64,000 nt of DNA from Candidatus Aminicenantes bacterium (GTDB lineage: Bacteria; Acidobacteriota; Aminicenantia; Aminicenantales; UBA4085), in NCBI GenBank assembly GCA_026393895.1, contig JAPKZG010000013.1, positions 14,556 through 78,555 on the forward strand, written 5' to 3'. Of this stretch, positions 26,288-55,030 are shown in pieces (positions within the stretch are counted from its first letter, which is position 1; each line of letters begins with the position of its first letter). Position numbers and translations under genes: made by a program. Under the pieces are notes generated by a model that saw nothing but the letters and a program-made list of their open reading frames with translations, had not been told where the DNA came from and did not search any database.

Positions 26288-27308
26288 ACGCGGCCGGAAA
26301 TGTGGCGCTGTGGGCTGACCGGACCACCGTCACGGTCCCGTCCTCCAACGGTTGACGCAGATCCTCTAAAACCTTGCGTCGGAATTCGGGTAATTCGTCG
26401 AGAAACAAAACCCCAAGATGGGCCAAACTGACCTCGCCGGGTCGGGGCACCGCGCCCCCGCCGATCAATCCGGCATCGGTGACCGTATGATGCGGCGCGC
26501 GAAACGGCCGGCGGCCGACCGCTCCCTTCCCTTTCAAATACCCGGCTGCGCTGTAAACCTGGGTCACCTGGATGATTTCCTCGAACGTCATGTCGGGAAG
26601 GATCGAGGGCAGGCGCCGGGCGATCATGGTTTTGCCCGAACCCGGTGGGCCGATAAGGAGAACGTTGTGACCGCCGGCCGCGGCTACTTCCAGGGCCCGT
26701 TTGACGTGATGCTGGCCCTTGACTTCGCGGAAATCCGGCCCCGGAGGCGGTTCCTCGACCAACTCGGAAAGCGCGTACCGACTCGGTGGAAGCCGGCCCG
26801 GGTCGTGGAGGAAGGAGACGACCTGGGGCAGGTCGGACACCCCGAACACGTCGAGGCCGTCGAGCAAAGCCGCCTCTTTTTCATTGTCCTTGGGGACGAC
26901 GATGCCCTTGAATTTCCGGGTCCTGGCCAGGATGGCCGCCGAAAGGACGCCCTTGACCGGTTTGATCCTTCCGTCCAGGGCCAACTCTCCTAAAAAACAA
27001 TAATCCTGGAGCGGCGGAACCGGGACGATGTTCAGGAAGGCGAGATGCCCGAGGGCGATAGCCAGGTCGAACGACGGACCTTCCTTCCGGCGGTCGGCCG
27101 GGGCGAGGTTGATCGTAACCTTGCGGGGCTGAAAATCATAGCCGCAATTCTTGAGCGCCCCCTTGACCCGCTCCTTGCTTTCCCGGACCGAGGCGTCGGG
27201 AAGCCCGACGATGATGAAATCGGGCAGGCCGTTGCCGATGTCGACTTCGACCTCGACGATGTAGGCCTCGATGCCCTGGAGGGCGGAACTGGACGTTTTT
27301 ATGAGCAT
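26208..27308 (-). pseudogene. comM: comM/yifB Mg-chelatase-like AAA+ ATPase, 3'-truncated by island insertion (frame reads into island after 'AAMNPCDC')
   Basis: '[13 protein letters not shown]' Walker A, '[10 protein letters not shown]' Walker B, 'AAMNPC' sensor region then divergence; C-terminal ~140 aa missing. Confidence 0.8.
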
Positions 27309-37784: not shown

Positions 37785-38318
37785 TCAGCTCCTCTTTAAC
37801 CGGAAGACGTTCCCCGCCTCGTAGATTTCGGCCTGGATGGCGCTCATCGGCTCGAAGGAAATCGATTCGTTCCGGGTGACGTTGCGGCCCCGGCCGGAGG
37901 AAAGGTCGATTTCGATTTCGTCGCCGGAGCGGAGGAGGCCTTCGGCCGCCGGCCGTTCCAGGCCTTCGCTGCGCAGGACGGGAAAGCCGGCGTTGACCGC
38001 GTTGCGGAAATAGATCGCCGAGAACGACGGCGCCATGATCCCCTTGACGCCCAGGGCGACGAAACAATCCACCGCCTGCTGGCGCGAGGACCCCGCCCCG
38101 AAATTGCGGCCGGCGACGAGAATGTCGCCCGGTTTGGCTTTTTGGGGGAAGTCCTTCCAGCCCTCGAGGTTTCCCAGGGCATAAGCCCCCATTTGGGAAA
38201 TTTCGGTGATGTGAAGATGGGAGTTGTGAAAGATCTGATCGGTGTCGATGTCTTCGATGAGCCGGCCGTCGGGCCAAGCCAGGACCCAGACCCGGCCGCG
38301 GAGGATCTGGCTGCGCAT
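37785..38318 (-). CDS. leuD: 3-isopropylmalate dehydratase small subunit-like (LeuD/aconitase swivel domain)
   Basis: 'VLAWPDGR..IDTDQI', 'AGRNFGAGSSRQQA'; 177 aa. Confidence 0.75.
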   Translation of the reverse strand: MRSQILRGRVWVLAWPDGRLIEDIDTDQIFHNSHLHITEISQMGAYALGNLEGWKDFPQKAKPGDILVAGRNFGAGSSRQQAVDCFVALGVKGIMAPSFSAIYFRNAVNAGFPVLRSEGLERPAAEGLLRSGDEIEIDLSSGRGRNVTRNESISFEPMSAIQAEIYEAGNVFRLKRS

Positions 38319-38319
38319 G

Positions 38320-39570
38320 TCAAATCTCCCCGGGCGAGACGATTTCGCCCTTGACGCAGGAGGCGGCTACGGTCACGGGCGAAGCCAGATAAACCGAACC
38401 TTTCCCCTGCTTGCCCGGAAAATTCCGGTTTCCGGTGCTGATTTCGACCTCGCCTTTTCCCGTCAATCCGGCGTGGCCTTCAGCGCACCCGCCGCATCCC
38501 GGATTAAGAACGATGGCCCCGCTTTCGAACAACGTTTTCAGGATCCCCGTGGACAGAATATCCTCGTAAACCCGGCGGGTGGCCGGGACGACCTTAAGCA
38601 TGACGCCCGGCCGAATTTTCCGACCGCGGAGGACCGCGGCCGCGGCGGCCAGGTCCTCGATCCGGCCGTTGGTGCAGGATCCGATGAAACCGGAATCGAT
38701 CCGGACGCCCCGGGCTTCCGAGACGGGTTTCACCGTGTTGGGGGACGGAGGAACGGCGATTTGGGGTTCGAGGCCGTCGACGTTCACTTCAATCGTATCG
38801 GCGTATCGCGCGTCCGGATCGGCGGCGACCGGTGGCTCTCCGGCGGAGGCAAACGCGGCGGCGGATTTCCCGGGGTTGACGATTTCCTCCGGGATGAAGC
38901 CGATGATTCCAGCCATCTCGGTGATCATGCTGCAGAGCGTGATTCGGCCGGCCAGGTCGAGAGCACGGACGGCCGGCCCGTAGAATTCGGCCGAGCGGAG
39001 GGCGATTTTCGACGTTCCGAGCTTCAGGCAGAGAAAGAGGGCTAAATCCTTGGCCGTCGCCCGCGGCGACGGGTTTCCCTTGAGAACGACGTTGACGCTT
39101 TCCGGAACTTCAAACCACGTTTTTCCCATCCGGAAGGCGAAGGTGATGTCGATGTCGCCCATCCCCTGGCCGAAGCACCCGATCGCCCCGAGGATGTTCA
39201 TGTGACTGTCCGTACCGACGGCCGTTCCGCCGGGGCGGGCCAGCCCCTCTTCCATCAGGACATGCGAGCCGATGCCCTGGTCCACATCGTAAACGCGCAC
39301 CCCGCGCTTGCGGGCGAAAACGCGGCAGGCCTGCTGGTTGTCGGCGTATTTCAGCGTGCAGGCCGGAGCGCAGAGGTCGAAGGTGAAGACCGTCCGGGCC
39401 GGATCGTCGAGGGCGGCCCCGCCGTATTCCCGTTCGTAGTTCTTGACGACGTTCGGGCCGCCGAAATCGCGGGCGGACCGGACATCCAGGTCCATCCAGA
39501 CGATCCGGCCGGCGGAGACGTCCTCCCGCGAGTGAGCCTGAATGATCTTTTCGATGACGGTCTTGGCCAC
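38320..39570 (-). CDS. leuC: 3-isopropylmalate dehydratase large subunit-like (aconitase family, archaeal-type LeuC/HACN)
   Basis: 'GTDSHM', 'GSCTNGR', 'NPGCGGC' Fe-S cluster ligand motifs; 416 aa. Confidence 0.75.
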   Translation of the reverse strand: MAKTVIEKIIQAHSREDVSAGRIVWMDLDVRSARDFGGPNVVKNYEREYGGAALDDPARTVFTFDLCAPACTLKYADNQQACRVFARKRGVRVYDVDQGIGSHVLMEEGLARPGGTAVGTDSHMNILGAIGCFGQGMGDIDITFAFRMGKTWFEVPESVNVVLKGNPSPRATAKDLALFLCLKLGTSKIALRSAEFYGPAVRALDLAGRITLCSMITEMAGIIGFIPEEIVNPGKSAAAFASAGEPPVAADPDARYADTIEVNVDGLEPQIAVPPSPNTVKPVSEARGVRIDSGFIGSCTNGRIEDLAAAAAVLRGRKIRPGVMLKVVPATRRVYEDILSTGILKTLFESGAIVLNPGCGGCAEGHAGLTGKGEVEISTGNRNFPGKQGKGSVYLASPVTVAASCVKGEIVSPGEI

Positions 39571-40924: not shown

Positions 40925-41701
40925 CTATCGTACAGTCAGCTCCCCGAGGTAGAAATGGACTTCACCATTATTGTCTGCCGCCGATGCTGACCATGCGAAA
41001 GCACCGATAACGTTGGAGAGATCTGCTCCTGAGAGATCGACTCGGTATTCCTGCCAGGTGGGCTGCAGACGGATGACGTCCAGGGACCGCTCATAGGTAT
41101 CAGAGTACTTCTTGCCCCGAACACCCCCAGACTTGAACTCAATAAGCTCGCCACCTCGTCCCCCCTTGGCACGGAAGGTGATGGCCCTCGCACCCACTAA
41201 GCTCTTGCCAGGGAAGTTACCCCAGTTCTTATCGGGATAGAGCCAGTAGATTCCAGCCGAGCCGTTCGGTCCAGCGCTGTATTTCACCTCGATGTAGATT
41301 CCTCCCTCCATATCCGGTGAAGCCTTGCGCGCTAAAGTTAAGTACTTCGTTCCATATTCGCCATCACCCATCCAGCCCGAGGGATAGAACTGTGTGTCGA
41401 GCTGGAATGGTAGAGGTGCTTTTACCTCGAGACCGGCCTTTTGGACGATCGCTGCGGCATCGTCTTCTGATAGGTACCGAGTGAGCTCTGTGGGCGTGAT
41501 TCTGCCCTCGGAAGTGCCGCGTTGCAGCAGCTCGAAGGCCCTGCGGTTCCTTTCTTTCTCCGTCTGAAGTTCACGCTCGCACACCGTAAGAGTGTTTCTT
41601 GTGTCCATATAGTTGAGAACAAAGGTGACAAGCGCTCCAATGGCCACAAGCCCCGCGAGAATAGCTCCACTAAGTTCCAGGACCTTGCGCCGATCCTTCA
41701 T
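40925..41701 (-). CDS. membrane-anchored hypothetical protein in lower-GC insert
   Basis: N-terminal TM 'VLELSGAILAGLVAIGALVTFVL'; noticeably lower GC than flanks. Confidence 0.4.
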   Translation of the reverse strand: MKDRRKVLELSGAILAGLVAIGALVTFVLNYMDTRNTLTVCERELQTEKERNRRAFELLQRGTSEGRITPTELTRYLSEDDAAAIVQKAGLEVKAPLPFQLDTQFYPSGWMGDGEYGTKYLTLARKASPDMEGGIYIEVKYSAGPNGSAGIYWLYPDKNWGNFPGKSLVGARAITFRAKGGRGGELIEFKSGGVRGKKYSDTYERSLDVIRLQPTWQEYRVDLSGADLSNVIGAFAWSASAADNNGEVHFYLGELTVR

Positions 41702-42131
41702 CTTTCCTCCTCTGGTTGAACCAATCGTATCGTGCGTGGCATGGCATTTATGCTGTCCAACTATGTTTATATGGGTCCACTTAAAAACCTAAACACCGCA
41801 TTTTGTGCCGTATAAACCTCCTTTGAAACATTAATTGGATCGACCATAACCTTTGGAATGTCAGCCGGTTGTGGCCAAGTGCCTTTATTATTAAGGCAAT
41901 TTATACGGATCAGCATAAAATCCTCCATGACATCCTCAAAGAGCATCGACCTGGCGCCGAACACCAGTCTCGCGGGCCAGCACATGCCGATAGAGGAACA
42001 GGAGCGCGCAGAGCGCCTGGTTCTGAGTCGAGGCACGGTTTGAAGATATTCCCCCCGTTAACATGGGCGAAGTTTATCGCACCGATTCAAAGGATGTCAA
42101 GAAAATGGTCGGGGCTGGCCCGTAAAGCCGA

Positions 42132-42620
42132 TTACAATCCGAGCTTCTTCTTCGTGTACTCGATCAACCCGCCGGCCTGGACGATACCGATCACGGATTC
42201 AGGCAAGGGGAAGAATTTAAACGTCCGGTTCCCGCTCGTGATCGTCCCGGCGGAAAAATCAACGTCGATCTCGTCGCCGGAGGCGAGTGAATCGGCCGCC
42301 TCGTCGCATTGGAGAACGGCCAGCCCGAGGTTGATCGCGTTGCGGAAGTAAATCCGGGCGAAGGACTTCGCCACGACGGCCTTCACCCCGGCCGCCCGCA
42401 GGCAGGCGGCCGCCTGCTCCCGGGAGCTCCCGCAGCCGAAGTTTTTGCCGGCGACGATCACGTCGCCCGACTTGACCGACTTGGCGAACTCCGGGTCCAG
42501 ATCCTCCATTGCGTGCCGGGCCATTTCCTCGAGCGGCATCAGCGCGTAAGTGTAGCGTCCCGGGAAAATGACGTCCGTGTTGACATTGTCGCCGTATTTC
42601 CAAACGCGTCCGGTGCTCAT
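42132..42620 (-). CDS. second LeuD-like aconitase-family small subunit
   Basis: '[15 protein letters not shown]'; 162 aa. Confidence 0.75.
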
Positions 42621-43870
42621 AAGCGTGTCCTCGGGTCGGTGATTTTTCCCTCAAGGGCCGTGGCCGCCGCCGTCGCCGGCGAGGCCAGGTAGATCTCGGA
42701 ATCCCGGTTTCCCATCCGGCCCCGGAAATTGCGGTTCGACGTCGAAACCACGGTCTCCCCCGCCGCGAGCAGCCCCTCGTGGGCCCCGAGGCACGGACCG
42801 CAGCCGGGATTCATGATCACACACCCCGCCTCGCTCAGTATTTCGATCGTCCCTTTGCGCAGAGCTTCAAGAAAAACCACGCGGGAGGCCGGGAAAACCA
42901 GGGCCCGGGTTTGGGGATGGACCTTCCGCCCCTTGAGGATCCGGGCGGCGATTTCCAGGTCTTCGAGCCGCCCGTTCGTGCAGGTCCCGATGAGGACCTG
43001 CTGGACGGGTTTGCCGGCGACCGCGCTCACGGGCTTGACGTTGTCGACCGTGTGCGGGCAGGCGATCTGCGGTTCGAGCTTCGAAAGATCGTAGGACAAG
43101 ACCGCTTCGTAGGTTGCGCCGGGATCGGAGAGGACCACCTCGAATTCCTGGAGCGTGCGGGCCTTGACCCAGGCGATGGTCAAAGCGTCCGGCTCGAAGT
43201 ATCCGTTCTTGGCTCCCATCTCGGCAGCCATGTTGGCCAGGGTCATCCGCGAGGAAAGGCTGAATTCCCCGGCCGCGGGGCCGGCGAATTCGATCGCCTC
43301 GTAATTCCCCCGGTCGGCGCCCTGATCCCCGATGAGTTTGAGAACGGCGTCCTTGGCGAAAACGCCCTCCGGGAAACGGCCGTGGAACTCCACCCGGAGC
43401 GTTTCGGGAACCCGCAACCAGATTTCGTCGGTCGCCCAGATCGAGGCGGCCTCGGTCCGGCCGATTCCGGCGGCAAACGCTCCGAACGCGCCGTACGTCG
43501 TTGTGTGGGAATCGCTGCCCACGATCACCTTGCCCGGCAGGGCCAACCCGGACTCGGGCAAGACCTGGTGGCAGACACCGTGCTGGATGTCGAAAAAATG
43601 CGGCAGGTTCTGTTCCCGGACGAACTCGCGGATCGTCTTGTGGTTCTGGGCGTATTTCTCATCGGCCGCAGGGACGATATGGTCGAGGATGATGATGATC
43701 TTCTCCGGCGCCTTGACCTGGGGAACGCCGATTTTTTTGAATTCCCCGATGATGGCCGCCGAGTTGTCGTGGGACAGGCAATAATCCGGGGAAATCGTGA
43801 CCACTTCGCCCGCCCGGACGACCCGTCCGGCCTTCCGGCCGAGGATTTTCTCGCTGAAGGTCTGACCCAT
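42617..43870 (-). CDS. second LeuC-like aconitase-family large subunit
   Basis: 'GSDSHT', 'GTCTNGR', 'NPGCGPC'; 417 aa. Confidence 0.75.
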   Translation of the reverse strand: MGQTFSEKILGRKAGRVVRAGEVVTISPDYCLSHDNSAAIIGEFKKIGVPQVKAPEKIIIILDHIVPAADEKYAQNHKTIREFVREQNLPHFFDIQHGVCHQVLPESGLALPGKVIVGSDSHTTTYGAFGAFAAGIGRTEAASIWATDEIWLRVPETLRVEFHGRFPEGVFAKDAVLKLIGDQGADRGNYEAIEFAGPAAGEFSLSSRMTLANMAAEMGAKNGYFEPDALTIAWVKARTLQEFEVVLSDPGATYEAVLSYDLSKLEPQIACPHTVDNVKPVSAVAGKPVQQVLIGTCTNGRLEDLEIAARILKGRKVHPQTRALVFPASRVVFLEALRKGTIEILSEAGCVIMNPGCGPCLGAHEGLLAAGETVVSTSNRNFRGRMGNRDSEIYLASPATAAATALEGKITDPRTRL

Positions 43871-43883
43871 GGAGCGCCCTCTT

Positions 43884-44423
43884 TTATTTAAAGACGTCGA
43901 AATTGACGAAGTCGGCGTGATTCACGATGATCGCCTCGATCGTCCGCCGCCCGCCGTCCCCTTCCTTCGAGTGGGCGGCGATGATATGGACGACTTCCTC
44001 CGGCACTCCGTATTGAAAGGCGAAGGCCGCGCCGGAAATCGGGTGACGCAGAAGTTCGCCGGCCCGGCTCTTGACGAAGACGCCGTTCTCGAGCGCGTAC
44101 TCGAAAAGCTTTCCGACGTCGTGGAGTATCGCCCCGGCCAGGAGGGCGTCGCGGTCCACCCGGACCTTGCCGTGGTATTCCTTATGGAGGACATCGCCGA
44201 TGCCGACGGCGGTCATGGTCACGGACCGGGTGTGTTCGATGAGGCTGACGGCCGTCGTCTTGATGAGGAGCGTGAACGGCATCCGGGTCAGGTCGTATTC
44301 CGACCAACCGCTTTTTTTGACGGCCTCGAACCAGACCTTGAGCGTGAGCTCCTTCAGGCCCGAGTCGGCGATCTGCCCGATCTCGGGCAAAAGTTCGAGA
44401 ATTTTTTCGCGGGAAACGCTCAT
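43884..44423 (-). CDS. HD-domain phosphohydrolase
   Basis: 'GAILHDVGK' HD motif; 179 aa. Confidence 0.65.
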   Translation of the reverse strand: MSVSREKILELLPEIGQIADSGLKELTLKVWFEAVKKSGWSEYDLTRMPFTLLIKTTAVSLIEHTRSVTMTAVGIGDVLHKEYHGKVRVDRDALLAGAILHDVGKLFEYALENGVFVKSRAGELLRHPISGAAFAFQYGVPEEVVHIIAAHSKEGDGGRRTIEAIIVNHADFVNFDVFK

Positions 44424-45205
44424 GGAATCTTCCTTTCAACCGGGCCGTCGTAGACATAATCTTCCGGATCGATTTTCCGCATGGGCTTCATCCGGGTTTT
44501 TTCCTCGTGGACGTGGGCCACGAGTCCCGGGACGCGGGCGATCATGAAAAAGGCGTTGCCGATCTCGGGCGGGATGCTCAGGTCGCAGAACAGGGCGGCG
44601 ATCGCCCCGTCGACGTTGATCGGCAGGGGTTTCCCCAATTGCCCGGCCAGGACGGACTCGGTCAGGCGGGCGATCCGGACATGACGTCCAGCCAGGCCGA
44701 GTTCCTCGGCCAGGCCGAACAATTTCGCCGTCCGGGGGTCTTTCGTATGAAGGCGATGCCCGAAACCCGAGGCCCGTTTGCCCTTGGCCTTCATCTCGTC
44801 CAGAACGGCCTTGACCGCGGCCGTCTCGTCGCCGTCTCCGGCGTCGGCCTTTTGGGCGATGGCCAGAAACATCCTCTGGCCCTCCTCGATCGCTCCGCCG
44901 TGAAAGCGGTTGATCGCCAGGATTCCGGCCGCGACGGCGGCGTTCAATTCCGCGCCGGTCGAGGCGACGGTCCGTGCGGCCAAGGCCGACGGCGGGCTTG
45001 CCCCATGGTCGATGGACGAGACGAAAATCGCGTCAAGGAGCTTTCCGACGGCAGGCGTCGGCAACTCCCCTTTGAGGATGAGATATATGGCCTGGGCGAA
45101 GGTGACCTTCCCCATCAATTCGTCGATGAGATAACCCCGGGCCATGATCCGGTTGGGTTTCACTTCGGTGATCGCCGTCGGCCACTTTTCGGTGTTTTCG
45201 GGCAT
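44420..45205 (-). CDS. citryl-CoA lyase-like (citrate-synthase-fold small domain)
   Basis: 'SGFGHRLHTKDPR' citrate-synthase active-site signature; 262 aa; ORF-track N-terminal extension spurious. Confidence 0.65.
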   Translation of the reverse strand: MPENTEKWPTAITEVKPNRIMARGYLIDELMGKVTFAQAIYLILKGELPTPAVGKLLDAIFVSSIDHGASPPSALAARTVASTGAELNAAVAAGILAINRFHGGAIEEGQRMFLAIAQKADAGDGDETAAVKAVLDEMKAKGKRASGFGHRLHTKDPRTAKLFGLAEELGLAGRHVRIARLTESVLAGQLGKPLPINVDGAIAALFCDLSIPPEIGNAFFMIARVPGLVAHVHEEKTRMKPMRKIDPEDYVYDGPVERKIP

Positions 45206-45240: not shown

Positions 45241-46143
45241 TTATTTCTTCGCGGCCAGGAGTTCGGCGACCCGGCCGGGGATGTCGGCCGCGGCGTCGAC
45301 GACATGGACGCCGACTTCCCGCAGCCGTTTGACCTTGCTCTCGTAGGATCCGCGATTGCCCTCGACGATGGCCCCGGCGTGGGAAAACCGCGTTCCGGAT
45401 TTGGCCGCCTTGCCGCCGATGAAGGCCACCAGCGGCTTCGTGAACTTCTTCTGCTCGATCAGGTCGGCGACTTGTTCCTCCTGCGTCGTGCCGATCTCGC
45501 CGAACACCGCCACAGCTTTCGTTTCCGGGTCCTGTTCGAACAATTCCATGACTTCGGGGTGGGACGTACCTACGATCGAGTCGCCTCCGACGTGGACGAT
45601 CGTGCTCAAACCCAGCCCGGCCCGGCTCAGATCGTAGGCGATGGCGGAGGTCATCCCGCCGCTGCGGGAACTGACGCCCACCGGCCCGGGTTGGAACCAT
45701 TCCCTCGCCCGCTGGGCCCGGCCGCCGATCATTCCCAAAACCGCCTTGCCCGGGACCAACAGGCCGAGGGTGTTCGGGCCTACGAACCGGGCCCCGGCCG
45801 ATTTGGCCGCGGCCGCGATTTCCAGGACGTCGTAGATCGGGACCCGGTCGGGGACGATCACGAGCAGTTTCACCCCGGCCGCCAGGGCTTCCAGGGCGGC
45901 GTTCTTCACCAACGCCGCAGGGACGAAGATGACGCTGGCGTCGATCGACCCGACCTTCTCGCAGGCCTCCTCGACGGCGTCGAAGACGGGAATGCCGTAA
46001 ACATCCCGGCCGCCACGGCCGGGCGTAACCCCGCCCAAGACGTTGGTACCGTAATCCTTCATCAACTGGGCCCGGACGATGCCTTCGCGGCCGGTGATCC
46101 CCTGGATCAGGACTTTGGTTTTTTCGTCGACTAAAATGGCCAT
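45241..46143 (-). CDS. succinyl-CoA synthetase alpha-subunit-like (CoA-binding; citryl-CoA synthetase small subunit candidate)
   Basis: 'LIQGITGREG', phospho-His loop 'RFSHAGAIV'; 300 aa. Confidence 0.75.
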   Translation of the reverse strand: MAILVDEKTKVLIQGITGREGIVRAQLMKDYGTNVLGGVTPGRGGRDVYGIPVFDAVEEACEKVGSIDASVIFVPAALVKNAALEALAAGVKLLVIVPDRVPIYDVLEIAAAAKSAGARFVGPNTLGLLVPGKAVLGMIGGRAQRAREWFQPGPVGVSSRSGGMTSAIAYDLSRAGLGLSTIVHVGGDSIVGTSHPEVMELFEQDPETKAVAVFGEIGTTQEEQVADLIEQKKFTKPLVAFIGGKAAKSGTRFSHAGAIVEGNRGSYESKVKRLREVGVHVVDAAADIPGRVAELLAAKK

Positions 46144-46159
46144 TGATTTATCCGTACGC

Positions 46160-47779
46160 TCAAGACTTTTTCCGGATCCGGTCGCGGTATTCCTTCAGGC
46201 CGGGAATCGGCAGCTGAATGAAGATCGCCTGTTTTTCGTGGTAATTGCAGAAGATCTCGCAGGCCAGGCACTCCGTGCACTTGCCCTTTTTCACCTCCGC
46301 CTCGGGAATGGCCAGGACGGGCTTGCCTTCCTCGTCGAGTTTGAGGATCTTCGGAACGCAGGCGCCGACGCAGCCCTTGGACGCGCAATGGAGGCATTGG
46401 GAATGGTCGAAGGAAATCCGGCCGGTGAACGTGGCGAAGGAATACGCGCTGGTCGGGACCCTCGGCTCCTCCATGGGTTGGACCTCATGGACCATGCCGC
46501 CGTCCTCGGCGATCATCCCCGCCAGCCGGGCCGCACATTTTTCGGGCGCGTCGTCCCGGCCGTATCCCTCGACTCGGCCGGGTAGGTCCTGGAGGTACGT
46601 GTCCAGGATCCGGATCGCTTCCTCTTCGAAATTTCCGCCGAGGCGGATGACGGCCGGAATGTTCAGCTGTTCCTCGGCGAAAGCCTTCACCAATCCGCGG
46701 GCCGAGTTGTATTGTTCCTGGGAGGCCGCGCCCGAGCCCGAGGCAAAGTACCCCATGAGACCGGCCTGGCTGAGGATGACCTTGGCCGCCCGGTATACTT
46801 TGCTCGCCGGGGGGTTGCCGCTGGTGTCGCAATAATCGGCGATTTTAAAGCCCTTGGCCAAAACGGCGTCCATGGACATCATCGAACCGCCGCCGCCGGC
46901 CCCGTGAAACCCGATCAGCGTCTCGCCGGGTTCGGCCTGGTCGGCCATCTGGAGAAAGTAAAACGTTCCGCGGTGGTCCTTTTCCTCGACCCTGTAGGCG
47001 ATCCGCTCAAGTTCGGTCGGGGGACGGTCGAATTCGCGGGCGACTTCGATGCCCAGCTCCGGATGGCGGTAGACGGCATAATCGTCGACGACCAGGTGGC
47101 AATCGGCCGCCAGGATCCGGCCGTCGGCCGTCCGGACCATGGGATTGATCTCGACCGAGCGGGCGTCGGCCGCCCGGGCGATCGCGGACAATTTCGTCAA
47201 TATGTCGGCGATCTGGACTAGGGTCGGTCCGGAGATCCCGGCCTTCCGGACCATGTTCAAGGCCTCGAATTCGCGAAGGCCGGTGCGGACGTCGATCAAC
47301 CGGCGGACGATCCGGTCGGGGTGGAGACGGGCGATTTCCTCCACCCCCGTCCCGCCGACGGAGCTGAAAACGAGGAGGGGGCACTTGGCCGCGTCGTCCA
47401 TGACGATCCCGGCGAAATATTCGAACTCGATGGCCAGTTTTTCCTCGACCAGAACACGGTCGACGACATAGTTATTGACCTTCATTCCGAGCAGGGACGC
47501 GGCTTTCGCCTCGGCTTCGGCGGGCGAATCGGCAAACTGAATGCCGCCGAGACCGGCCCGGCCGGTCACCCAGACCTGGATCTTCAAAACGACCGGGCGG
47601 CCAAGCCGTTCGGCGATCGCCCGGGCTTCGGCCGGAGAGGAGGCGACGGCGCCCTCGGGAACGGGGACGCCGCCTTCGCGGAGGAGCTTTTTACTCTGAT
47701 ATTCATATAAGCGGGCCAAGGGAATCTCTCCACCAATGATTGAATCGACAGTATAGCGAAAATCCGCCGTTTTCGCCAA
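46160..47779 (-). CDS. ATP-grasp succinyl-CoA synthetase beta-like subunit with C-terminal 2x[4Fe-4S] ferredoxin domain
   Basis: 'LYEYQSKKLL' SucC-like N-term; C-terminal 'CLHCASKGCVGACVP' and 'CTECLACEIFC' ferredoxin motifs; 539 aa. Confidence 0.65.
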   Translation of the reverse strand: MAKTADFRYTVDSIIGGEIPLARLYEYQSKKLLREGGVPVPEGAVASSPAEARAIAERLGRPVVLKIQVWVTGRAGLGGIQFADSPAEAEAKAASLLGMKVNNYVVDRVLVEEKLAIEFEYFAGIVMDDAAKCPLLVFSSVGGTGVEEIARLHPDRIVRRLIDVRTGLREFEALNMVRKAGISGPTLVQIADILTKLSAIARAADARSVEINPMVRTADGRILAADCHLVVDDYAVYRHPELGIEVAREFDRPPTELERIAYRVEEKDHRGTFYFLQMADQAEPGETLIGFHGAGGGGSMMSMDAVLAKGFKIADYCDTSGNPPASKVYRAAKVILSQAGLMGYFASGSGAASQEQYNSARGLVKAFAEEQLNIPAVIRLGGNFEEEAIRILDTYLQDLPGRVEGYGRDDAPEKCAARLAGMIAEDGGMVHEVQPMEEPRVPTSAYSFATFTGRISFDHSQCLHCASKGCVGACVPKILKLDEEGKPVLAIPEAEVKKGKCTECLACEIFCNYHEKQAIFIQLPIPGLKEYRDRIRKKS

Positions 47780-47925
47780 TATCCCGGACCTGTCCGGAAG
47801 GTCGGGATGGGGGCCGGACCGAAGGCCGGCCGTTCTGCCGAAGACTCCGGACGGCCGCGTGGTTCATTGACTTCATTCTCCCGTCTTTATATATTATTAA
47901 CAACGCTGGGATTAGAGCAAACCGG

Positions 47926-50900
47926 ATGAGCGCTTCAGCCGAGGGAAAGACCTGCCCGAAGTGCCAGGCCTTCAATTTTTCCGGCGACGTTTTTTGTTTC
48001 AATTGCGGGACGAATCTCGGAGACCAGGGGACTCTTTCCCTGCCCGGAGCACCGGGTCCCTCCCCGGCGGCGGCCGATCTTCCGGATTTGCCTTCCGGGA
48101 CGCGTTTCGCCGACAGGTATCTTATCATCGAAGAAATCGGGTGCGGGAGCATGGGCCGGGTCTTCAAGGCCAAGGACCTGAAGCTGGACCAGACCGTCGT
48201 CCTGAAGATGATCCGGCCGGAGCATTCTTCGAGTCCGATGGTCGTCAACCTCTTTAAAAAAGAAACGTCGCTGGCCCGGTCCCTCTCCCAGGAAAACATC
48301 ATCCGCGTCTTCGACCTGGGCGAAAGCCAGGGGGTGACCTTCATCTCCATGGAATATGTCCCCGGGCAGAATCTCGAGCAGCTCCTGCAAGCTTCCGGGA
48401 CATTGACCGAGGCCACAGCCGTATCCATCACCCGCCAGATATGCCGGGCCCTGGACGCGGCCCACAAACGGGGGATCATCCATCGGGACCTCAAACCTCA
48501 AAACATCCTGATCGACGCCAACGGCCGGGTTCGGGTGGCCGATTTCGGGTTGGCCCAAACCATTGAGGTTTCGTCCAAAAATGTTCCGGGCCGCATCGTT
48601 GGCACTCCGGCATATCTGTCTCCCGAGCAGGCCCGAGGAGAGGAGGCCGACGCCCGCTCCGACATTTACGCCCTGGGCGTCATCATGTACGAGATACTGA
48701 CCGGCCGTAAGCCCTTTACGGCCGATACCATTGCGGGGTATCTCGAAAAGCACCTCCATGAAAAACCGAAGTCGCCCAAAACCTGGAATCCGGGCCTCTC
48801 TCACCGCTTGGAGATGACGATTCTCCGTTGCCTGGAAAAAGACCCGGACAAGCGCTTCCCGAGCGCCGGACGGGTCTTACAAACCCTGGAGGAGCGGCGG
48901 CTGCCGGCTTCGGCGGACGCGACCAAATCGCGTCGCCGTAACAGAAACCGGTTTGTCGTCTCCGCGGCCGCCCTCGGCCTTACCGCGCTCGGAATTTACT
49001 TTTTTTTCCTCCGCAACCCCGCCCCCCCCGCTCCTTCAAGCGACCGTACATCCGTGGCGGTCATGTACTTTGAGAACAACACCGGAGACCCGAACCTCGA
49101 ATACCTGCGCAAGGGGTTGTGCTACCAGGTCATCCAATCCCTCCTCCAATCCGCGCGCCTGCGGGTCATCACCACCGACCGGTTGTTCGACATCCTGAGA
49201 GACCGGAATCTTCTCGGGAACGAAACCTACTCCACTAATGACCTTAAAAAAGTGGCCGAGCGGGCCCAGGTTCGGTATATCCTTCAGGGCAACTACGCTA
49301 AAATAGGCCGAATGTACAAGGTCAACTCGTTCCTGCTCGACACGAACACCTGGGAATCGGCCGGATCCATCCAAAGCGAAGTGGAGGACCTGAATCAACT
49401 GAACTCCGTGGTCGAACGGATGACCCCGGAGATCAAGGCCGCTCTTCCGATTCCCCGCGACCAAATATCCGCGGAATCCGCCCGACGCCTCGATAAAATC
49501 ACGACGAGTTCCCCCGAAGCTCTCACGCATTACATCGAGGGGGAAACGCTCTTCAAGGAAGGAAAGTTCCGGAAAAGCTCCGACGCCTATCGCCAAGCGA
49601 TCGCTCTCGACCCCGAATTCGCCCGGGCTTACATGAACCTCGCCGAAAACTCTTTGACGCTGGGGTTGCGGGCCGAAGCTAGAACCCAAGTGGAAAAAGC
49701 GATCGACCTGGCCGCCGCCGGCCGGGCCTCACTTCGCGATCAGCTTCTATTCCAGGGATTTTACAGCATGACTTTCGGGACGTCCGTTCGGGAAGCCGTC
49801 AAACATTATCAAAAGCTCCTCTCCCTCTACCCGGACGATGAGGACGGCCTGATATTCCTCGGATCCCTCTATCGAACTCTTGAGGAATGGGACCTGTCCC
49901 GGGAATGCTTTGAACGGCTTCTTCGGCATAATAAATTCAACCCCGTGATTTACATCAACCTTTCCACGATTTACATGGCCCGGGGTTTCTATGCAAAGGC
50001 GGCCGACATCCTTCCTTCCGACCCCGATCGATTATCCGAATCCTTTCGCAATTTTTATCTCAGCCTTGTGTATCTTTGTCAGGGCCGATATGAAGAAGCG
50101 TTGGCCGAAATCGAAAATAAACTGAAGCCGGAGCCGGAGCGGCTCGGAAATCTTCTCATGAGGGGGAATATCCGCCAACTCAAAGGAGACCTCGCTTCGG
50201 CCGAGTCCGACTATCTTCAGGTCTTCAAAAACTCCGACATCGGCATGCAAACCCTCGGATTGAGCTCCCTGGCTCATCTGTACCTCCAGGAAGGCCGCTT
50301 CATAGAATACCGGGTTTTGATCGCCCAGGGGATCGGCCTCGCAAAAAAAACGGACATGAAGGAAGACGAATTCTACTTTCGTGCTCGTGAAGCCTCCGAA
50401 ATCGCCTCCCGGGGTGATTACGCCACAGCCGAAGAAAGCGCCCTCCAGGCCGTCCGTTTGGCCGAGGAGTTGGATGACATGAATTTTCGAGCCGAAGCCC
50501 TGAACCTTCTCGGAAAACTCCAGGCCGCCCGGGGGAAAAAGGCCGAAGCCGAAAAGACCGGAGACCAACTCAAGCGACTCATCGATGAAACCGGGCGAAA
50601 TTATCTGCTGAGATATTATCATCATTTAAAGGGGATGATCGCGCTAGCCGAAGGGGATCTTGCCTCGGCTTCGGATTATTGCCGAAAGGCGGGCGAAGGG
50701 CTGCCGTTTGAAAATAATACGTACACTGATATGCACGCATATTTTGACGAATCCCGGGCCAAGATCGCCGAGGAAGCCGGAGATACGGACAAGGCGATTT
50801 CCCTTTTCCGGGTCCTCATCGCCCGAACTTCGGGACGGCTCTGTTACGGCGATTTATTTGTCCGGAGCTACTATCGCCTGGGAAAACTGTTGCTCAAGAA

Positions 50901-51060
50901 AAATCTCCGGGCCGAGGCCGCCGACGCCTTCGAGACGTTCCTCCGGATGTGGGCCGGGGCCGATCCCGGTCTGGCCGAAGTGACCGACGCCCGGGCCGAG
51001 TTGGCCGCCCTCAAGTCCCCCGTTCGGCCGCCTGCGCCCAAAACAACTCCCGCTGTTTGA
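47926..51060 (+). CDS. Ser/Thr protein kinase with N-terminal zinc ribbon, TM segment and C-terminal TPR repeats
   Basis: Zn-ribbon 'CPKCQ...CFNCG'; kinase 'HRDLKPQNIL', 'DFGLA', 'GTPAYLSPEQ'; long TPR region; ATG at 47926. Confidence 0.8.
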   Translation: MSASAEGKTCPKCQAFNFSGDVFCFNCGTNLGDQGTLSLPGAPGPSPAAADLPDLPSGTRFADRYLIIEEIGCGSMGRVFKAKDLKLDQTVVLKMIRPEHSSSPMVVNLFKKETSLARSLSQENIIRVFDLGESQGVTFISMEYVPGQNLEQLLQASGTLTEATAVSITRQICRALDAAHKRGIIHRDLKPQNILIDANGRVRVADFGLAQTIEVSSKNVPGRIVGTPAYLSPEQARGEEADARSDIYALGVIMYEILTGRKPFTADTIAGYLEKHLHEKPKSPKTWNPGLSHRLEMTILRCLEKDPDKRFPSAGRVLQTLEERRLPASADATKSRRRNRNRFVVSAAALGLTALGIYFFFLRNPAPPAPSSDRTSVAVMYFENNTGDPNLEYLRKGLCYQVIQSLLQSARLRVITTDRLFDILRDRNLLGNETYSTNDLKKVAERAQVRYILQGNYAKIGRMYKVNSFLLDTNTWESAGSIQSEVEDLNQLNSVVERMTPEIKAALPIPRDQISAESARRLDKITTSSPEALTHYIEGETLFKEGKFRKSSDAYRQAIALDPEFARAYMNLAENSLTLGLRAEARTQVEKAIDLAAAGRASLRDQLLFQGFYSMTFGTSVREAVKHYQKLLSLYPDDEDGLIFLGSLYRTLEEWDLSRECFERLLRHNKFNPVIYINLSTIYMARGFYAKAADILPSDPDRLSESFRNFYLSLVYLCQGRYEEALAEIENKLKPEPERLGNLLMRGNIRQLKGDLASAESDYLQVFKNSDIGMQTLGLSSLAHLYLQEGRFIEYRVLIAQGIGLAKKTDMKEDEFYFRAREASEIASRGDYATAEESALQAVRLAEELDDMNFRAEALNLLGKLQAARGKKAEAEKTGDQLKRLIDETGRNYLLRYYHHLKGMIALAEGDLASASDYCRKAGEGLPFENNTYTDMHAYFDESRAKIAEEAGDTDKAISLFRVLIARTSGRLCYGDLFVRSYYRLGKLLLKKNLRAEAADAFETFLRMWAGADPGLAEVTDARAELAALKSPVRPPAPKTTPAV

Positions 51061-52123
51061 TCAAAATCCGGTTGATCCGGCAGACGGCAACCGGGATCAT
51101 CCCGATTTTCCCGCTCTTCAAAGAGGCGGCGGGGGGACAGAACGCGCAGCGGTCGAGATACGGACAATTCCCGCAGGCCCGTTCGGACGTCTCGGCCCAA
51201 TCCATCCGTCCGCGGGCGTATTGGACGAGGACGTTCTTGTCGAGGTCCCCGGCGGATCGGAGAAAATCTCCGACCGTCCCGAAACAAAAACGGCGGGCCA
51301 CGTCCGCGGTCGGATGGACCCTGAAAAAATCCGCATAAAAATAACAGCCCCACAACCGCCCGTCGGGCGCCAGGGCGAGGCGGTCCCGCCCCGCCGAGCA
51401 ACCGAAAACACCGGAAGCGGCCGGGTGCCGGAAATTGATGAGCGGCATAGTCCGGCGGGCCCGCGGAAGGCGAAGAAAATATTTCCGGACCGACCGAAGC
51501 TCATGGGACAGCCGGTCCAGGGATCTTTTCCGCCACTCGACCTGATAATCAAACGACAGGAGCATGTTCGGGATTTTCCGTTCGGCGATATAGGCGATCG
51601 ATTTCGAAAGCAACCCTACGGTCCGGGGGCCGAAGACACTGTTCGTGGCCGGTTTGATACCCGGGTAACGGGGAAGGTCGTCAAGCAGCGATGACAATAT
51701 CCGGAAGCTTCCTTTCTGTCTTTCTTTTTCCTGGGCCAATCCGTCAAAGCTCAACATCAACTCGAAGCGGCGCTCGTTTAAAAAAGACAGAATCTCCGGG
51801 CTGAGAAGGGCGCCGTTGGTGGTCAGAACGTAGCGCAAGCGTTTCCGGGAACTTCGGTTCTCTTTCTCCAGACGCAGAACCGCCCGGCGGACCAGATCGA
51901 AAGCAAGGAGCGGTTCTCCGCCGTAAAACTGGATCACGGAGGAAGCGGACAAGAAGGGAAAAACCGCGGCACAGGCTTTGTCCAGGATTTTCCCCTCAAG
52001 AACCCTTGTGCCCCGGCGTTGATAACAATAACCGCAATGCCAAGGGCATCGCTCAGTCAGAATCAGCGAAAATGCGGAAAACTTCCCCTTGCCGGGAGGT
52101 TCCTTCAACGGCGGCCGGCTCAC
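51011..52123 (-). CDS. radical SAM / SPASM-domain enzyme (anSME-like peptide-modifying maturase)
   Basis: 'CPWHCGYC' CxxxCxxC; C-terminal Cys clusters 'CGNCPYLDRCAFCPP'; 370 aa. Confidence 0.75.
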   Translation of the reverse strand: MSRPPLKEPPGKGKFSAFSLILTERCPWHCGYCYQRRGTRVLEGKILDKACAAVFPFLSASSVIQFYGGEPLLAFDLVRRAVLRLEKENRSSRKRLRYVLTTNGALLSPEILSFLNERRFELMLSFDGLAQEKERQKGSFRILSSLLDDLPRYPGIKPATNSVFGPRTVGLLSKSIAYIAERKIPNMLLSFDYQVEWRKRSLDRLSHELRSVRKYFLRLPRARRTMPLINFRHPAASGVFGCSAGRDRLALAPDGRLWGCYFYADFFRVHPTADVARRFCFGTVGDFLRSAGDLDKNVLVQYARGRMDWAETSERACGNCPYLDRCAFCPPAASLKSGKIGMIPVAVCRINRILIKQRELFWAQAAERGT

Positions 52124-52513: not shown

Positions 52514-55030
52514 TCAATTCCTCCGGCCGGCGGGTTTTCCAGACGGAGAAGGCCGAGCTTTCGCCCCCTGTCGTCCGCTTCCGAGTTTTGCCGGCGGGGG
52601 AACGGCGGCTTCGATTTTCATCCGGACTTCGCGCAAGGCCTCGGTCAGGCGTTTGGCCGAGACCGGACCGGCGGTCCCGATTTCGGGAGCGAACACCGCG
52701 ATTTTATATTCCTCGATCAGCCAACGAACTTCGTCCAAAGCCGCCCGGATTTCGGCCGGCTCCGCGGTCCCAAATCTTTTATTGAGCCCGGCCAGCGACT
52801 CGGCGAACGGAGCTATTTCGGCCGCTTTATTCCGGTCCTTTTCGGGGCTGTTTTTAGCCCGTTCGGCCCGGATCCGGAGCGCTTCAAGATAAGCGGGCAG
52901 CCGGTCGAGGCGGCCGGGCGGATAGATTTCGGCGAAATTCCGGGGCATCAAAGTTTCCAGTTCTGCCCGGATCGTCTCGACGAGCCCCTCGACCGCCTTG
53001 TTCCCCTGGTGGGTCATACCGATCGTATAAAGATCTGCCCGGACACCCTGATACCCGGCGAGCGCGCGTTTAACCGTTTCCATAAGAAGCTGGCCTTCGG
53101 CGAAAAGCGTTTTTACGAGACCGTCGGCGAAGGCCTGGCCTTCCGCCCGGTCCCGGATGTCCTTGCGGAACACCCGGACGCGGAGAGCTTCGAGCAGGGA
53201 TTTTTCGACCGCTGCTTTTCCGCCGAAATAAAGCGCCGCCCGCTGATGCTCCTCGGGAAAGACCAGAACCCGCTCCATAAATTTCAGGTCGCGGGCAAAT
53301 TTCCGGGAGAGCAGGGCTTCGACACCGCGCGGATGGGCCGCCGCGGCCTCCTCCGCGGTTTTATAGAGCCGGAGACCGACGTCTTTCGGCCCGGAAACGA
53401 GCGCGGGGTAGGCTGAAACGCCGCCGCCAATCCTGATTTCCACGGGAATCGAGTCCCAGTCCCAATCCGCGACGGCCGGCCGTTCCCATTGTTCGCAGAC
53501 TTTTTTCCAGGAAAATGAGCCGGTGTCGGCCACCGGCGCTTTCGGCCGTAAGCCAAGGAGCGGACCGTAATCCCGGCCGGAGGAGACTTCGTTGTCGGCC
53601 GCGTCCAGAACGGACAGCCGGATCTTCAAATGCTTCGGCATGTCGACGGCTTCCCAAATTTCGGCCGGGACTTCGGCCCGGAACCTGCGCCGGACGAATT
53701 CGGAAAGAGCCGCGGACAACGAACCCGGAGTCCGGGGCATTTCCCGGATGATCACGTCCGCCCGTTCGGCCGCCGGAACGAGCGTTTTCCGGTAGCGTTG
53801 AGGAAGCCCCTTGACCAGGGCGTGGATTTTCTCCCGGAAATAACCCGGAATCCCCCATTCGAGGGTCCCGATTTCGAGTTGGGGCAGGACGTCCGCCTTG
53901 ACCCTGATCGTCGCCCCGTCGTCCTCGGCGCCCGGAAGGAACCGGTATTGCACCCGGATTCTCCGGCCGCCGAAATTCAACTCGTCGGGATAGAGAGCGA
54001 CTTCGAAGACCGCGGGCCGGGACCGGACGACGTCCTCCTCGCTCATGAAGAGAAACGACTCCCCGCCTTGTTTTTCGATGAATTTGCGGAGGCCCTTGAG
54101 GTCATAGATCCCGGCCAGGCGCTCGGCATAGAAATTCGCGGCCTCGGCCTCGGGAACGACGATATCCCGCCGGCGCATTTTTTCCTCGAGCGCCTCGAAT
54201 CGGGCGCGCAGTTCCAGGTTGTGTTTGAGAAACCCGGGCGGTTCCTTCACCTGCCCGGCGAGCAACGCATCGCGGAAAAAAATTTTCCCGGCGGCCTCCG
54301 GGTCGACCGGGCCGTACGGCAATTCCCGGCGCGAAACGATCTCCAGGCCGAAGAGGGTCACCCTCTCGTCCGCCCGGACTTCTCCCCTGTTCCTGTCCCA
54401 GCGGGGATTTTCATACGCTCGCTGACAGAGATCACCGGCCAGGGCTTCGAGCCAGCCGGGCTCGATCCGGGCCGCCGTCCTCACGTAGAGCCGGCCGGTC
54501 TGGACGATCTCGGCCGCGACGATCCACACCGGAGGTTTCCCGAACAGGGACGAACCCGGAAAGAGCATAGCTTCCCGGCCGCGGGCGGCCGTATACATCT
54601 TTCCTTCCTTGAGGACGGCGACGTGAGACAACAACCCGGCGGCCGCGGCGCGGTGGATCGCGCCGTAGAGTTGTTTGGACATCGGAACGGGTTTGGATCG
54701 GCCGGGGGGGAATTTCTGCTCCCGGAGGATTTCGAGGATTTGGTCGTGGATGTAGACCCATTCCCGCATCCGCGGGAAGGACAGGAAATGTTCGCGACAG
54801 AACCGCCGCTTTTGGGTCGTGGAGCGGAGGCCCTCCCAGTCGCCGTGATAGCGGTCCCAGATGTTGAGGAGCGTCAGAAAGTCGGAATCGGGTTCGCGGA
54901 ACGGCGCGTGGCAGGAGTCGGCCTGAGCGGCTTTTTCGAGGGGCCGTTCGCGGGGATCGCGGATGCTGAGGGCCGAGGCGACGACCGCGGCCTCCCTCAG
55001 GCAATTCTCGGAAACGGCTTCGATCAACAT
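52514..55030 (-). CDS. hrpA: ATP-dependent RNA helicase HrpA, C-terminal part (HA2/OB/DUF3418-like)
   Basis: 'EAAVVASALSIRDPRERP' matches HrpA HA2 region; 838 aa. Confidence 0.8.
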   Translation of the reverse strand: MLIEAVSENCLREAAVVASALSIRDPRERPLEKAAQADSCHAPFREPDSDFLTLLNIWDRYHGDWEGLRSTTQKRRFCREHFLSFPRMREWVYIHDQILEILREQKFPPGRSKPVPMSKQLYGAIHRAAAAGLLSHVAVLKEGKMYTAARGREAMLFPGSSLFGKPPVWIVAAEIVQTGRLYVRTAARIEPGWLEALAGDLCQRAYENPRWDRNRGEVRADERVTLFGLEIVSRRELPYGPVDPEAAGKIFFRDALLAGQVKEPPGFLKHNLELRARFEALEEKMRRRDIVVPEAEAANFYAERLAGIYDLKGLRKFIEKQGGESFLFMSEEDVVRSRPAVFEVALYPDELNFGGRRIRVQYRFLPGAEDDGATIRVKADVLPQLEIGTLEWGIPGYFREKIHALVKGLPQRYRKTLVPAAERADVIIREMPRTPGSLSAALSEFVRRRFRAEVPAEIWEAVDMPKHLKIRLSVLDAADNEVSSGRDYGPLLGLRPKAPVADTGSFSWKKVCEQWERPAVADWDWDSIPVEIRIGGGVSAYPALVSGPKDVGLRLYKTAEEAAAAHPRGVEALLSRKFARDLKFMERVLVFPEEHQRAALYFGGKAAVEKSLLEALRVRVFRKDIRDRAEGQAFADGLVKTLFAEGQLLMETVKRALAGYQGVRADLYTIGMTHQGNKAVEGLVETIRAELETLMPRNFAEIYPPGRLDRLPAYLEALRIRAERAKNSPEKDRNKAAEIAPFAESLAGLNKRFGTAEPAEIRAALDEVRWLIEEYKIAVFAPEIGTAGPVSAKRLTEALREVRMKIEAAVPPPAKLGSGRQGAKARPSPSGKPAGRRN

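Follow-up and report, generated by a model that had tools for sequence, protein, structure and literature searches.

A ferredoxin-like module as a conserved third component of a putative citryl-CoA synthetase/lyase lineage in anaerobic bacteria

A stretch of 64,000 nucleotides from a Candidatus Aminicenantes bacterium (assembly GCA_026393895.1, contig JAPKZG010000013.1, positions 14,556 to 78,555; referred to as the window hereafter) carries on its minus strand a gene in which a SucC/CcsA-like beta subunit of the succinyl-CoA synthetase (SCS) type is joined to a C-terminal ferredoxin-like module. This gene, beta-Fd, is accompanied by genes for a SucD/CcsB-like alpha subunit and a citryl-CoA lyase (CCL) of citrate-synthase fold (Table 1). 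The best reading of these sequences is that the three proteins represent a third lineage of the citryl-CoA synthetase (CCS)/ATP-citrate lyase (ACL) type, a putative citryl-CoA synthetase/lyase defined by its iron-sulfur (Fe-S) module. The anatomy of the system, its conservation and its gene association were read directly from the genomes, and the whole proposal, in which a citryl-CoA ligase/lyase lineage would serve the citrate/2-oxoglutarate branch and carry a non-catalytic Fe-S module, is made with moderate confidence. The gene family itself has already been noticed, as putative CCS/CCL genes of Planctomycetes, Syntrophobacter, Desulfofundulus and Caldithrix (PMC5459899; bioRxiv 10.1101/2022.10.25.513756); what is new here is the Fe-S module as a conserved third component of the whole ligase clade. 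Our searches of the full-text literature available outside subscription-only papers turned up no paper that mentions a ferredoxin or Fe-S module for these enzymes or for any others of the SCS family. To our knowledge, the SCS/ACL superfamily is redox-neutral and no iron-sulfur clusters have been reported in it.

The fusion of a SucC-type beta subunit and a ferredoxin domain, which the earlier note had proposed on this DNA, is real. The minus-strand open reading frame (ORF) from 46160 to 47779 is continuous with zero internal stops, its homologues are ~515–520 aa long and span 96% of it, and an AlphaFold2 model based on a 117-sequence alignment was confident (pLDDT 94.6, pTM 0.88), including the linker and the ferredoxin domain with values of 93–97. 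By the continuous ORF, the same-length homologues and the confident model, a frameshift, or a ferredoxin domain encoded as a separate gene in the window, was ruled out. Upstream of an in-frame TTG at 47719 stands a Shine-Dalgarno-like GGTGGAGAG. The promoter-like site listed in Table 1 falls within the stretch by which the mechanical ORF extends 5' of this TTG, which favours the TTG as the start, and the actual protein is therefore probably 519 aa long. In Foldseek, residues 1–400 match SCS beta subunits, with the Thermus 3ufx chains as the best (TMt 0.86–0.87), and with the whole model no solved structure was found to span the extra domain. Pfam Citrate_bind is matched only weakly (24.5 bits, cut-off 26.8), and a match to Ligase_CoA is absent at E ≤ 0.01.

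The extra domain contains two four-cysteine motifs of the 2x[4Fe-4S] ferredoxin type, in which motif 1 is spaced non-canonically and the Cys-Pro pair is mostly missing. Motif 2 stands as the earlier note gave it, and the Cx2Cx4Cx3C spacing claimed for motif 1 stands as well, but V-P comes after it, not the C-P that had been stated. All eight cysteines are 100% conserved across 121 homologues (67–92% identity, nearly all labelled Aminicenantes). The full Cx2Cx4Cx3C...Cx2Cx2Cx3C pattern, including the x4 spacing, is kept in 80/80 of the species loci described below, a count for which the search pattern had preselected the first three cysteines of motif 2 and left the other five free. A chance cysteine pattern was ruled out by this invariance across phyla. 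The module has the (beta-alpha-beta)2 ferredoxin fold, resembling small electron-transfer modules such as FixX, PFOR delta and FwdG. Most likely, this ferredoxin-fold domain binds two [4Fe-4S] clusters. Among distant fused members, P0182 and P0177 still have the domain, but their cysteines suffice for a single cluster, being the three of motif 2 and the last one of motif 1. P0181/P0329 (locus L006) and relatives, of Planctomycetota, keep the domain in an otherwise identical operon and have lost all cysteines, and P0207 and P0238 are also among the distant fused members with full or partial cysteine loss.

The distribution of the module was surveyed in GTDB with one genome per species, using a 10-sequence module alignment and the pattern C[TI]ECLACE, which yielded 458 confirmed relatives; because the pattern excludes cysteine-less variants by design, this number is a lower bound and biased. 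The family is carried by anaerobic bacteria of more than 15 phyla. Locus counts were taken from the best 80 of the 458 relatives by our own ORF calls and blastp against references from the window and from annotated loci; denominators below 80 are the loci with enough sequence, and 43 is the number of loci with at least 6 kb downstream. By record title, the best 80 comprise Aminicenantes and other Acidobacteriota, Calditrichota, Marinimicrobia, WOR-3, Hydrothermota, Chloroflexota, Desulfobacterota including Syntrophobacter, Bacillota including the cultured Desulfofundulus thermobenzoicus, Zixibacteria, KSB1, Gemmatimonadales, Ignavibacteria, Eisenbacteria and others. Whether the fusion is conserved in relatives had been left to be checked, and it is: the module is fused to beta in 74/80 loci, and in 6/80 (labelled Bacillota or Armatimonadota) it is a separate gene of 88–100 aa between beta and alpha. 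The redox module that the earlier note regarded as unusual on an SCS-type enzyme is thus real, but it is not a one-gene oddity; it is the hallmark of a widespread family and occurs also as a separate gene. One very divergent fused beta-Fd (P0282, locus L007, 29% identity) has a weak alpha-like neighbour and lies next to radical-SAM/SPASM, PqqD and peptidase genes, a set typical of clusters for peptide modification. The reference set used picked up no lyase at this locus, which may represent a different use of the ligase-ferredoxin pair.

When the last 131 aa were used as the query, the hits comprised pieces of the fusion as well as stand-alone proteins of about 90–99 aa, and a profile of the stand-alone modules matched 743 database proteins at E ≤ 0.001. 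In the stand-alone copies that were looked up, the order was beta, ferredoxin-like gene, alpha in 6/6, several of them with overlapping stop/start codons. For instance, P0164 (source-labelled Desulfotomaculum sp.) lies between, and overlaps, genes for a 412-aa beta and a 299-aa alpha, and a 257-aa citrate-synthase-fold gene adjoins. A sister subfamily (loci L005 and L089–L093) has beta, an 87–98-aa ferredoxin-like protein, alpha and a lyase of the HpcH/CitE type, with malic enzyme, fumarase or glycolate-oxidase-like Fe-S flavoproteins often close by; in its beta subunit the Arg of the VIRLGGN motif is replaced (VILLAGN). Since the module is present in these CitE-lyase clusters as well, it goes with the ligase regardless of the lyase fold. 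Clusters that run from beta through a small protein, alpha and a CitE-type lyase to malic enzyme match Desulfitobacterium hafniense ACL21112 to ACL21108 in gene order, and all five D. hafniense proteins were 5–30x more abundant in pyruvate-fermenting cells (PMC9888536). By its gene order alone, ACL21111, annotated as 'hypothetical protein' between SCS beta and alpha, would probably be the module.

The neighbours described in the earlier note (a SucD-like alpha, a citrate-synthase-fold lyase, an HD protein and two LeuCD-type pairs) are all present in the window, together with an Iso_dh enzyme, and comparison of related loci makes the HD, LeuCD and isocitrate dehydrogenase (IDH)-type genes part of a conserved operon. 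In the window the first six operon genes are tightly packed (gaps of −4 to 35 nt, the alpha-CCL gap being 35 nt). Downstream of beta, alpha was found in 72/75 loci, the citrate-synthase-fold lyase in 60/67, the HD protein in 33/61, an aconitase-family gene in 20/43, an IDH-type gene in 20/43 and PrpD in 15/43, and the common order is beta-Fd, alpha, CCL, HD, aconitase-family enzymes and isocitrate-type dehydrogenase, often with PrpD. A Planctomycetota relative has, after beta, a 566-aa protein in which alpha and the citrate-synthase fold are fused as in AclA, and the genes that come next encode HD, aconitase, Iso_dh and PrpD; ORF analysis revealed alpha-CCL fusions also in four Chloroflexota loci (fused loci overall: L006, L019, L056, L065 and L083). 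These fusions and the near-universal adjacency of the genes argue for an intermediate shared by ligase and lyase, citryl-CoA. As for the dehydrogenase of the window, homoisocitrate dehydrogenase models score best, yet under their cut-offs, and no NCBIfam equivalog cut-off was reached. A search for a solved sequence relative of the HD protein came back empty. The conserved position of its gene, which is found in one locus of the CitE-lyase subtype as well, hints at a function in the system, perhaps on a phospho-intermediate. Between the first LeuD gene and the dehydrogenase lies a 258-aa ORF (40925–41701, minus strand; flanking gaps of 430 and 220 nt) with no Pfam or NCBIfam match, which was not seen in related loci; a promoter-like site is located at 42100..42071.

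As the earlier note supposed, the lyase is indeed related to citryl-CoA lyase. It passed the NCBIfam cut-offs of NF004866 (262.2 bits vs 245) and NF004869 (254.4 vs 212), and the best solved match was the Hydrogenobacter thermophilus CCL (6hxp_A, 195 bits over the full length), whereas citrate synthases gave ≤71 bits; the Pfam Citrate_synt match is limited to the C-terminal part of the profile. On the other hand, both ligase subunits stayed below the curated cut-offs (beta: 236.6 bits vs 370 for SucC model NF001913 and 232.6 vs 375.6 for TIGR01016; alpha: 290.8 vs 336 for SucD model NF004230 and 293.9 vs 353.2 for TIGR01019, with the SHAGA loop present), and beta reached 151 bits with the NCBIfam malate-CoA ligase beta model, whose cut-off is 604. 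In a quick neighbour-joining tree with midpoint root, the ferredoxin-associated betas, fused or split, formed one clade separate from other SucC-like proteins, apart from two very divergent fused outliers. The groups also differ in their site motifs, which are GGGA and FGGI(V/T)R in canonical SucC, YSGNP, ANFT and VRRxGP in AclB-like proteins, IGGNP and NNTR in CcsA-like proteins, and DTSGNPPAS and SGSG(V/A)ASQE in the ferredoxin-associated clade. The E. coli SucC row of the tree and motif table was entered by hand, and canonical-type database representatives show the same SucC motifs. The window beta has DTSGNPPAS and SGSGAASQE, and the SucC, ANFT/VRRGGP and NNTR motifs are missing. The GNP of the clade motif is common to CCS/ACL-like groups, unlike SucC, and GNPPA is shared by the beta substrate domain and CcsA. 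Searched alone, this domain had CcsA (6hxq_B, 45.5 bits) as its best solved match, narrowly ahead of Thermus SCS (45.2), and scored ~30 with E. coli-type SCS. Ordinary SucCD was rejected on the grounds of the curated cut-offs, the domain content with no Ligase_CoA in beta, the tree with its own clade and the site motifs. Thus, of the CCS/CCL-like alpha/beta pair with lyase that the earlier note had seen here, the lyase part holds, but the ligase is not an orthologue of the Aquificae CcsAB, its full-length sequence being nearer to SCS and the NNTR group being separate.

In the mechanism that we propose, beta-Fd would supply the beta subunit to ADP-forming hydroxyacid-CoA ligases that make up a distinct and widespread lineage. 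Together with alpha and CCL it would catalyse citrate + CoA + ATP <-> acetyl-CoA + oxaloacetate + ADP + Pi via citryl-CoA, so that the system would resemble an ATP-citrate lyase assembled from separate parts. The HD, aconitase-family, IDH-type and PrpD genes downstream place it at the citrate/2-oxoglutarate branch, where the operon would tie the citryl-CoA step to aconitase-family enzymes and an isocitrate-type dehydrogenase. What the earlier note took as a hint of a non-canonical organic-acid pathway looks like the ordinary citrate -> aconitate -> isocitrate -> 2-oxoglutarate branch. The module would be present in stoichiometric amounts as the third component of the ligase, whether as a domain of beta or as the product of a gene lying between those of beta and alpha. 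It would act as a non-catalytic structural or docking element, whose clusters may make assembly or activity redox- or oxygen-dependent.

Several findings weigh against this proposal. Over their full length, alpha and beta are nearer to Thermus/archaeal SCS than to CcsAB or AclAB (beta: Thermus SCS 3ufx_B 225 bits, CcsA 6hxq_B 117, AclB 93; alpha: archaeal SCS alpha 272 bits, CcsB 6hxq_A 169). When the citrate-binding residues of H. thermophilus CcsA (F270, G296, G297, A327, N328, N329, T330 and R363; bioRxiv 10.1101/2022.10.25.513756) were aligned to beta, only G297 and A327 were identical among the seven mappable ones; G296 corresponds to Ser, F270 to Ala, N328 to Ala, N329 to Ser and T330 to a gap, and R363 falls beyond the aligned stretch. 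The frequency of PrpD as a neighbour is also compatible with 2-methylcitrate-type substrates, and the reaction direction is not readable from sequence. Regarding the module, Pfam Fer4_7 at the C-terminus of beta-Fd gave 20.8 bits, below the gathering cut-off of 27 (Fer4_9 and Fer4_7 scores of the relatives' modules were 15.7–19.7 bits), and Foldseek with the ferredoxin domain gave zero significant matches. Finally, the strict conservation of eight cysteines would also fit a true electron-transfer function, with the partner encoded elsewhere in the genome.

The dominance of SCS among the full-length matches (225 bits for 3ufx_B and 236 bits for NCBIfam SucC) fits an alternative in which beta-Fd and alpha are a succinyl-CoA synthetase with an accessory domain and the citrate-synthase-fold neighbour is independent, e.g. 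a minimal citrate synthase; fumarase and succinate-dehydrogenase-like genes beside Desulfobacterota/Bacillota loci also agree with it. We regard it as quite unlikely, in view of both subunits being under the SucC/SucD cut-offs, the weak Citrate_bind and absent Ligase_CoA matches, the site motifs that are unlike SucC and share GNP with CCS/ACL-like groups, the near-universal adjacency of CCL with existing alpha-CCL fusions, and the separately annotated SCS of Caldithrix abyssi (Caby_3467-8). The PrpD genes, on the other hand, bear on the substrate. If this were another hydroxy-tricarboxylate such as 2-methylcitrate or homocitrate, the operon could belong to an ATP-conserving methylcitrate or 2-oxoacid-elongation pathway, which would agree with PrpD in 15/43 loci, PrpF or PrpB-like genes in some (L004, L001/L009), the dehydrogenase that scores best against homoisocitrate models (below cut-offs) and the two LeuCD/HacAB-type pairs. 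This is very unlikely in our judgement: in relatives the corresponding position is often taken by a full-length aconitase together with an IDH-type gene, the CCL is closest to a characterised citryl-CoA lyase, and no propionate-related genes are among those annotated in the 64-kb window.

With citrate as the putative substrate, the direction of the reaction has to be considered. The earlier note compared the genes with the two-step citrate cleavage of reductive tricarboxylic acid (TCA) cycle autotrophs. In line with such a role as in Aquificae, they are homologous to CCS/CCL and ACL, and earlier genome papers interpreted their counterparts in Planctomycetes, Syntrophobacter, Desulfofundulus and Caldithrix as possibly serving citrate cleavage in this cycle (PMC5459899; bioRxiv 10.1101/2022.10.25.513756). 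However, the carriers are for the most part known as anaerobic heterotrophs that ferment or respire (among them those of Aminicenantes, Calditrichota, Marinimicrobia, WOR-3 and KSB1), the window annotation contains neither 2-oxoglutarate synthase nor fumarate reductase, and the ligase is not orthologous to the Aquificae CcsAB, so that reductive-TCA autotrophy is not the obvious role and appears unlikely. The ACL reaction runs near equilibrium, and citrate synthesis by ACL with a gain of ATP has been reported for Desulfobacter postgatei; together these favour ATP-conserving citrate synthesis as the direction here. By this analogy, the more likely direction in fermentative Aminicenantes would be citrate synthesis, with the thioester energy recovered as ATP.

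The ligase and lyase reactions are redox-neutral, as established for the chemistry of the SCS/ACL family. Across the 80 loci no ferredoxin-dependent oxidoreductase was recurring near the genes, the commonest unannotated neighbour being found in ≤8/80. Since the chemistry is redox-neutral, no redox partner recurs and cysteine-poor or cysteine-less variants occur in the same operon, a structural or docking function is favoured over a catalytic or obligatory electron-transfer one, and as far as the sequences tell, the module is probably structural or redox-regulatory and non-catalytic. The same three facts count against a working electron-transfer domain, which would wire or dock the ligase to a PFOR- or 2-oxoglutarate:ferredoxin oxidoreductase-type enzyme, or keep the [4Fe-4S] aconitases of the operon reduced. 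This alternative is possible though doubtful; consistent with it are the eight cysteines conserved in 80/80 species loci, the fold that is like FixX, PFOR delta and FwdG, carriers that are ferredoxin-using anaerobes, Fe-S flavoproteins encoded near some loci of Desulfobacterota and Bacillota, and a gene resembling 2-oxoacid:ferredoxin oxidoreductase gamma in 4 loci.

Comparison with known systems brings out what is particular to the lineage. CcsAB and Ccl of H. thermophilus (6hxq, 6hxp) likewise consist of three separate genes for an ATP-grasp beta, a CoA-binding alpha with phosphohistidine and a lyase of ~260 aa with citrate-synthase fold, but CcsA (429 aa) is without the cysteine-rich domain, its NNT(R) citrate-site motif is replaced by ASQE in the window beta, and the carriers of the ferredoxin-associated clade are mostly not Aquificae-type autotrophs. 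With AclAB of bacteria and archaea (Chlorobium 6hxj; Methanothrix 6hxi), the proposed type II ACL among them, the overall chemistry would be the same. The alpha-lyase fusion of AclA recurs in the Planctomycetota and Chloroflexota relatives, whereas the window has separate genes; AclB (398 aa) is without a ferredoxin module, its ANFT/VRRGGP motifs are not in the window beta, and the similarity is low (93 bits). Such Planctomycetes genes were placed between the Aquificae CCS/CCL and type II ACL by Thiel et al. 2017 (PMC5459899). SucCD (Thermus aquaticus 3ufx; archaeal 2yv1/2yv2) is the best full-length match in sequence and fold and shares the two-subunit architecture and the catalytic histidine motif, whereas the window system adds an Fe-S module and an obligatory lyase neighbour and has different site motifs. 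MtkAB with a CitE/HpcH-family lyase follows the same logic of a ligase plus a C-C lyase, and the sister subfamily of the ferredoxin-associated clade uses an HpcH/CitE-like lyase; the lyase of the window, however, has the citrate-synthase fold and is not of the CitE type. We know of no Fe-S subunit in MtkAB. FixX of EtfABCX (7koe_H), PFOR delta (9bt4_H) and FwdG are parts of oxidoreductases, whereas the module described here sits on a redox-neutral ligase, has the Cx2Cx4Cx3C spacing in motif 1 and seldom the canonical Cys-Pro, and falls below the Pfam Fer4 thresholds.

The carriers include abundant uncultured phyla of sediment and subsurface as well as cultured anaerobes such as Desulfofundulus thermobenzoicus. 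Current annotations label the genes 'succinyl-CoA synthetase', 'acetate-CoA ligase family' or 'hypothetical'. Surveys of metagenomes either tally them among the ordinary TCA enzymes or treat them as evidence of carbon fixation by the reductive TCA cycle, and neither interpretation is warranted without biochemistry. If the clusters are real, they would mean redox or oxygen control of the acetyl-CoA/citrate step; they could also form a so far unrecognised physical link to ferredoxin-dependent metabolism. A more far-reaching hypothesis, offered tentatively and more likely wrong than right, is that many anaerobes make citrate by a reversible, ATP-conserving ligase/lyase in place of citrate synthase, that the CitE-type sister subfamily may make malate-type acids likewise, and that the Fe-S subunit gates activity or direction by redox or oxygen. 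If true, this would be an energy-saving, redox-controlled entry into a TCA branch, previously unrecognised, in more than 15 phyla.

Table 1. Coordinates of the beta-Fd gene, its parts and the surrounding operon in the window
Feature	Position	Strand	Evidence or remark
beta-Fd gene: SucC/CcsA-like beta subunit with ferredoxin-like module, 519 aa plus stop (probable start)	46160..47719	(-)	
ATP-grasp nucleotide-binding domain, aa 3-215	47075..47713	(-)	Pfam ATP-grasp_2, E 5e-51
C-terminal substrate/CoA-ligase-type domain, aa 240-400	46520..47002	(-)	FHGAGGGGS, DTSGNPPAS, SGSGAASQE, VIRLGGN (clade signature)
Ferredoxin-like module, aa 421-519, predicted 2x[4Fe-4S]	46163..46459	(-)	
Cysteine motif 1, CLHCASKGCVGAC (Cx2Cx4Cx3C)	46358..46396	(-)	
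Cysteine motif 2, CTECLACEIFC (Cx2Cx2Cx3C)	46247..46279	(-)	
Promoter-like TTGGCG-18-TATACT	47750..47779	(-)	consensus scan only
Alpha subunit, SucD/CcsB-like, 300 aa, SHAGA phosphohistidine motif at aa 254	45241..46143	(-)	Pfam CoA_binding, Ligase_CoA
Citryl-CoA lyase (CCL), citrate-synthase fold, 261 aa, ATG at 45205, contains GFGHRLHTKDPR	44420..45205	(-)	
HD-domain protein, 179 aa, start overlaps CCL stop by 4 nt	43884..44423	(-)	Pfam HD
Aconitase-family large subunit 1 (LeuC/HacA type)	42617..43870	(-)	NCBIfam NF001614, 573 bits vs 385 cut-off
Aconitase-family small subunit 1 (LeuD type)	42132..42620	(-)	TIGR02087, 200 bits; 4-nt overlap with LeuC stop
Isocitrate/homoisocitrate/isopropylmalate-type dehydrogenase, 371 aa	39589..40704	(-)	Pfam Iso_dh, E 9e-88
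Aconitase-family large subunit 2 (LeuC type)	38320..39570	(-)	NF001614, 405.7 bits vs 385 cut-off
Aconitase-family small subunit 2 (LeuD type)	37785..38318	(-)	TIGR02087, 118.9 bits

Some other features of the window were noted. Divergent from the operon lies a 1106-aa ORF (47740–51060, plus strand) that, judged by eye from its translation, is Ser/Thr protein kinase-like with a TPR-rich C-terminal half, and a radical-SAM protein (51011–52123, minus strand) adjoins it. An HrpA-like helicase (52514–56229, minus strand) is divided into two ORFs in different frames with a 7-nt overlap, one with DEAD plus Helicase_C (55024–56229) and the other with HA2_C, OB_NTP_bind and DUF3418 (52514–55030), which is either a frameshift or a genuine split. 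A 1054-aa ORF (57479–60643, minus strand) has an unusual mix of APH-type kinase, Peptidase_M23 and class-III aminotransferase. At the other end (1–27308), the first ~26 kb has a GC content of 0.34–0.47 vs about 0.60 and looks like an integrated mobile element. This low-GC part contains two large serine recombinases (4751–6520 and 24785–26287, both plus strand) and an AAA_21/AbiEii-like 936-aa ORF (16501–19311, minus strand), and ends beside an apparently truncated Mg-chelatase/ComM-like gene of 366 aa (26208–27308, minus strand).

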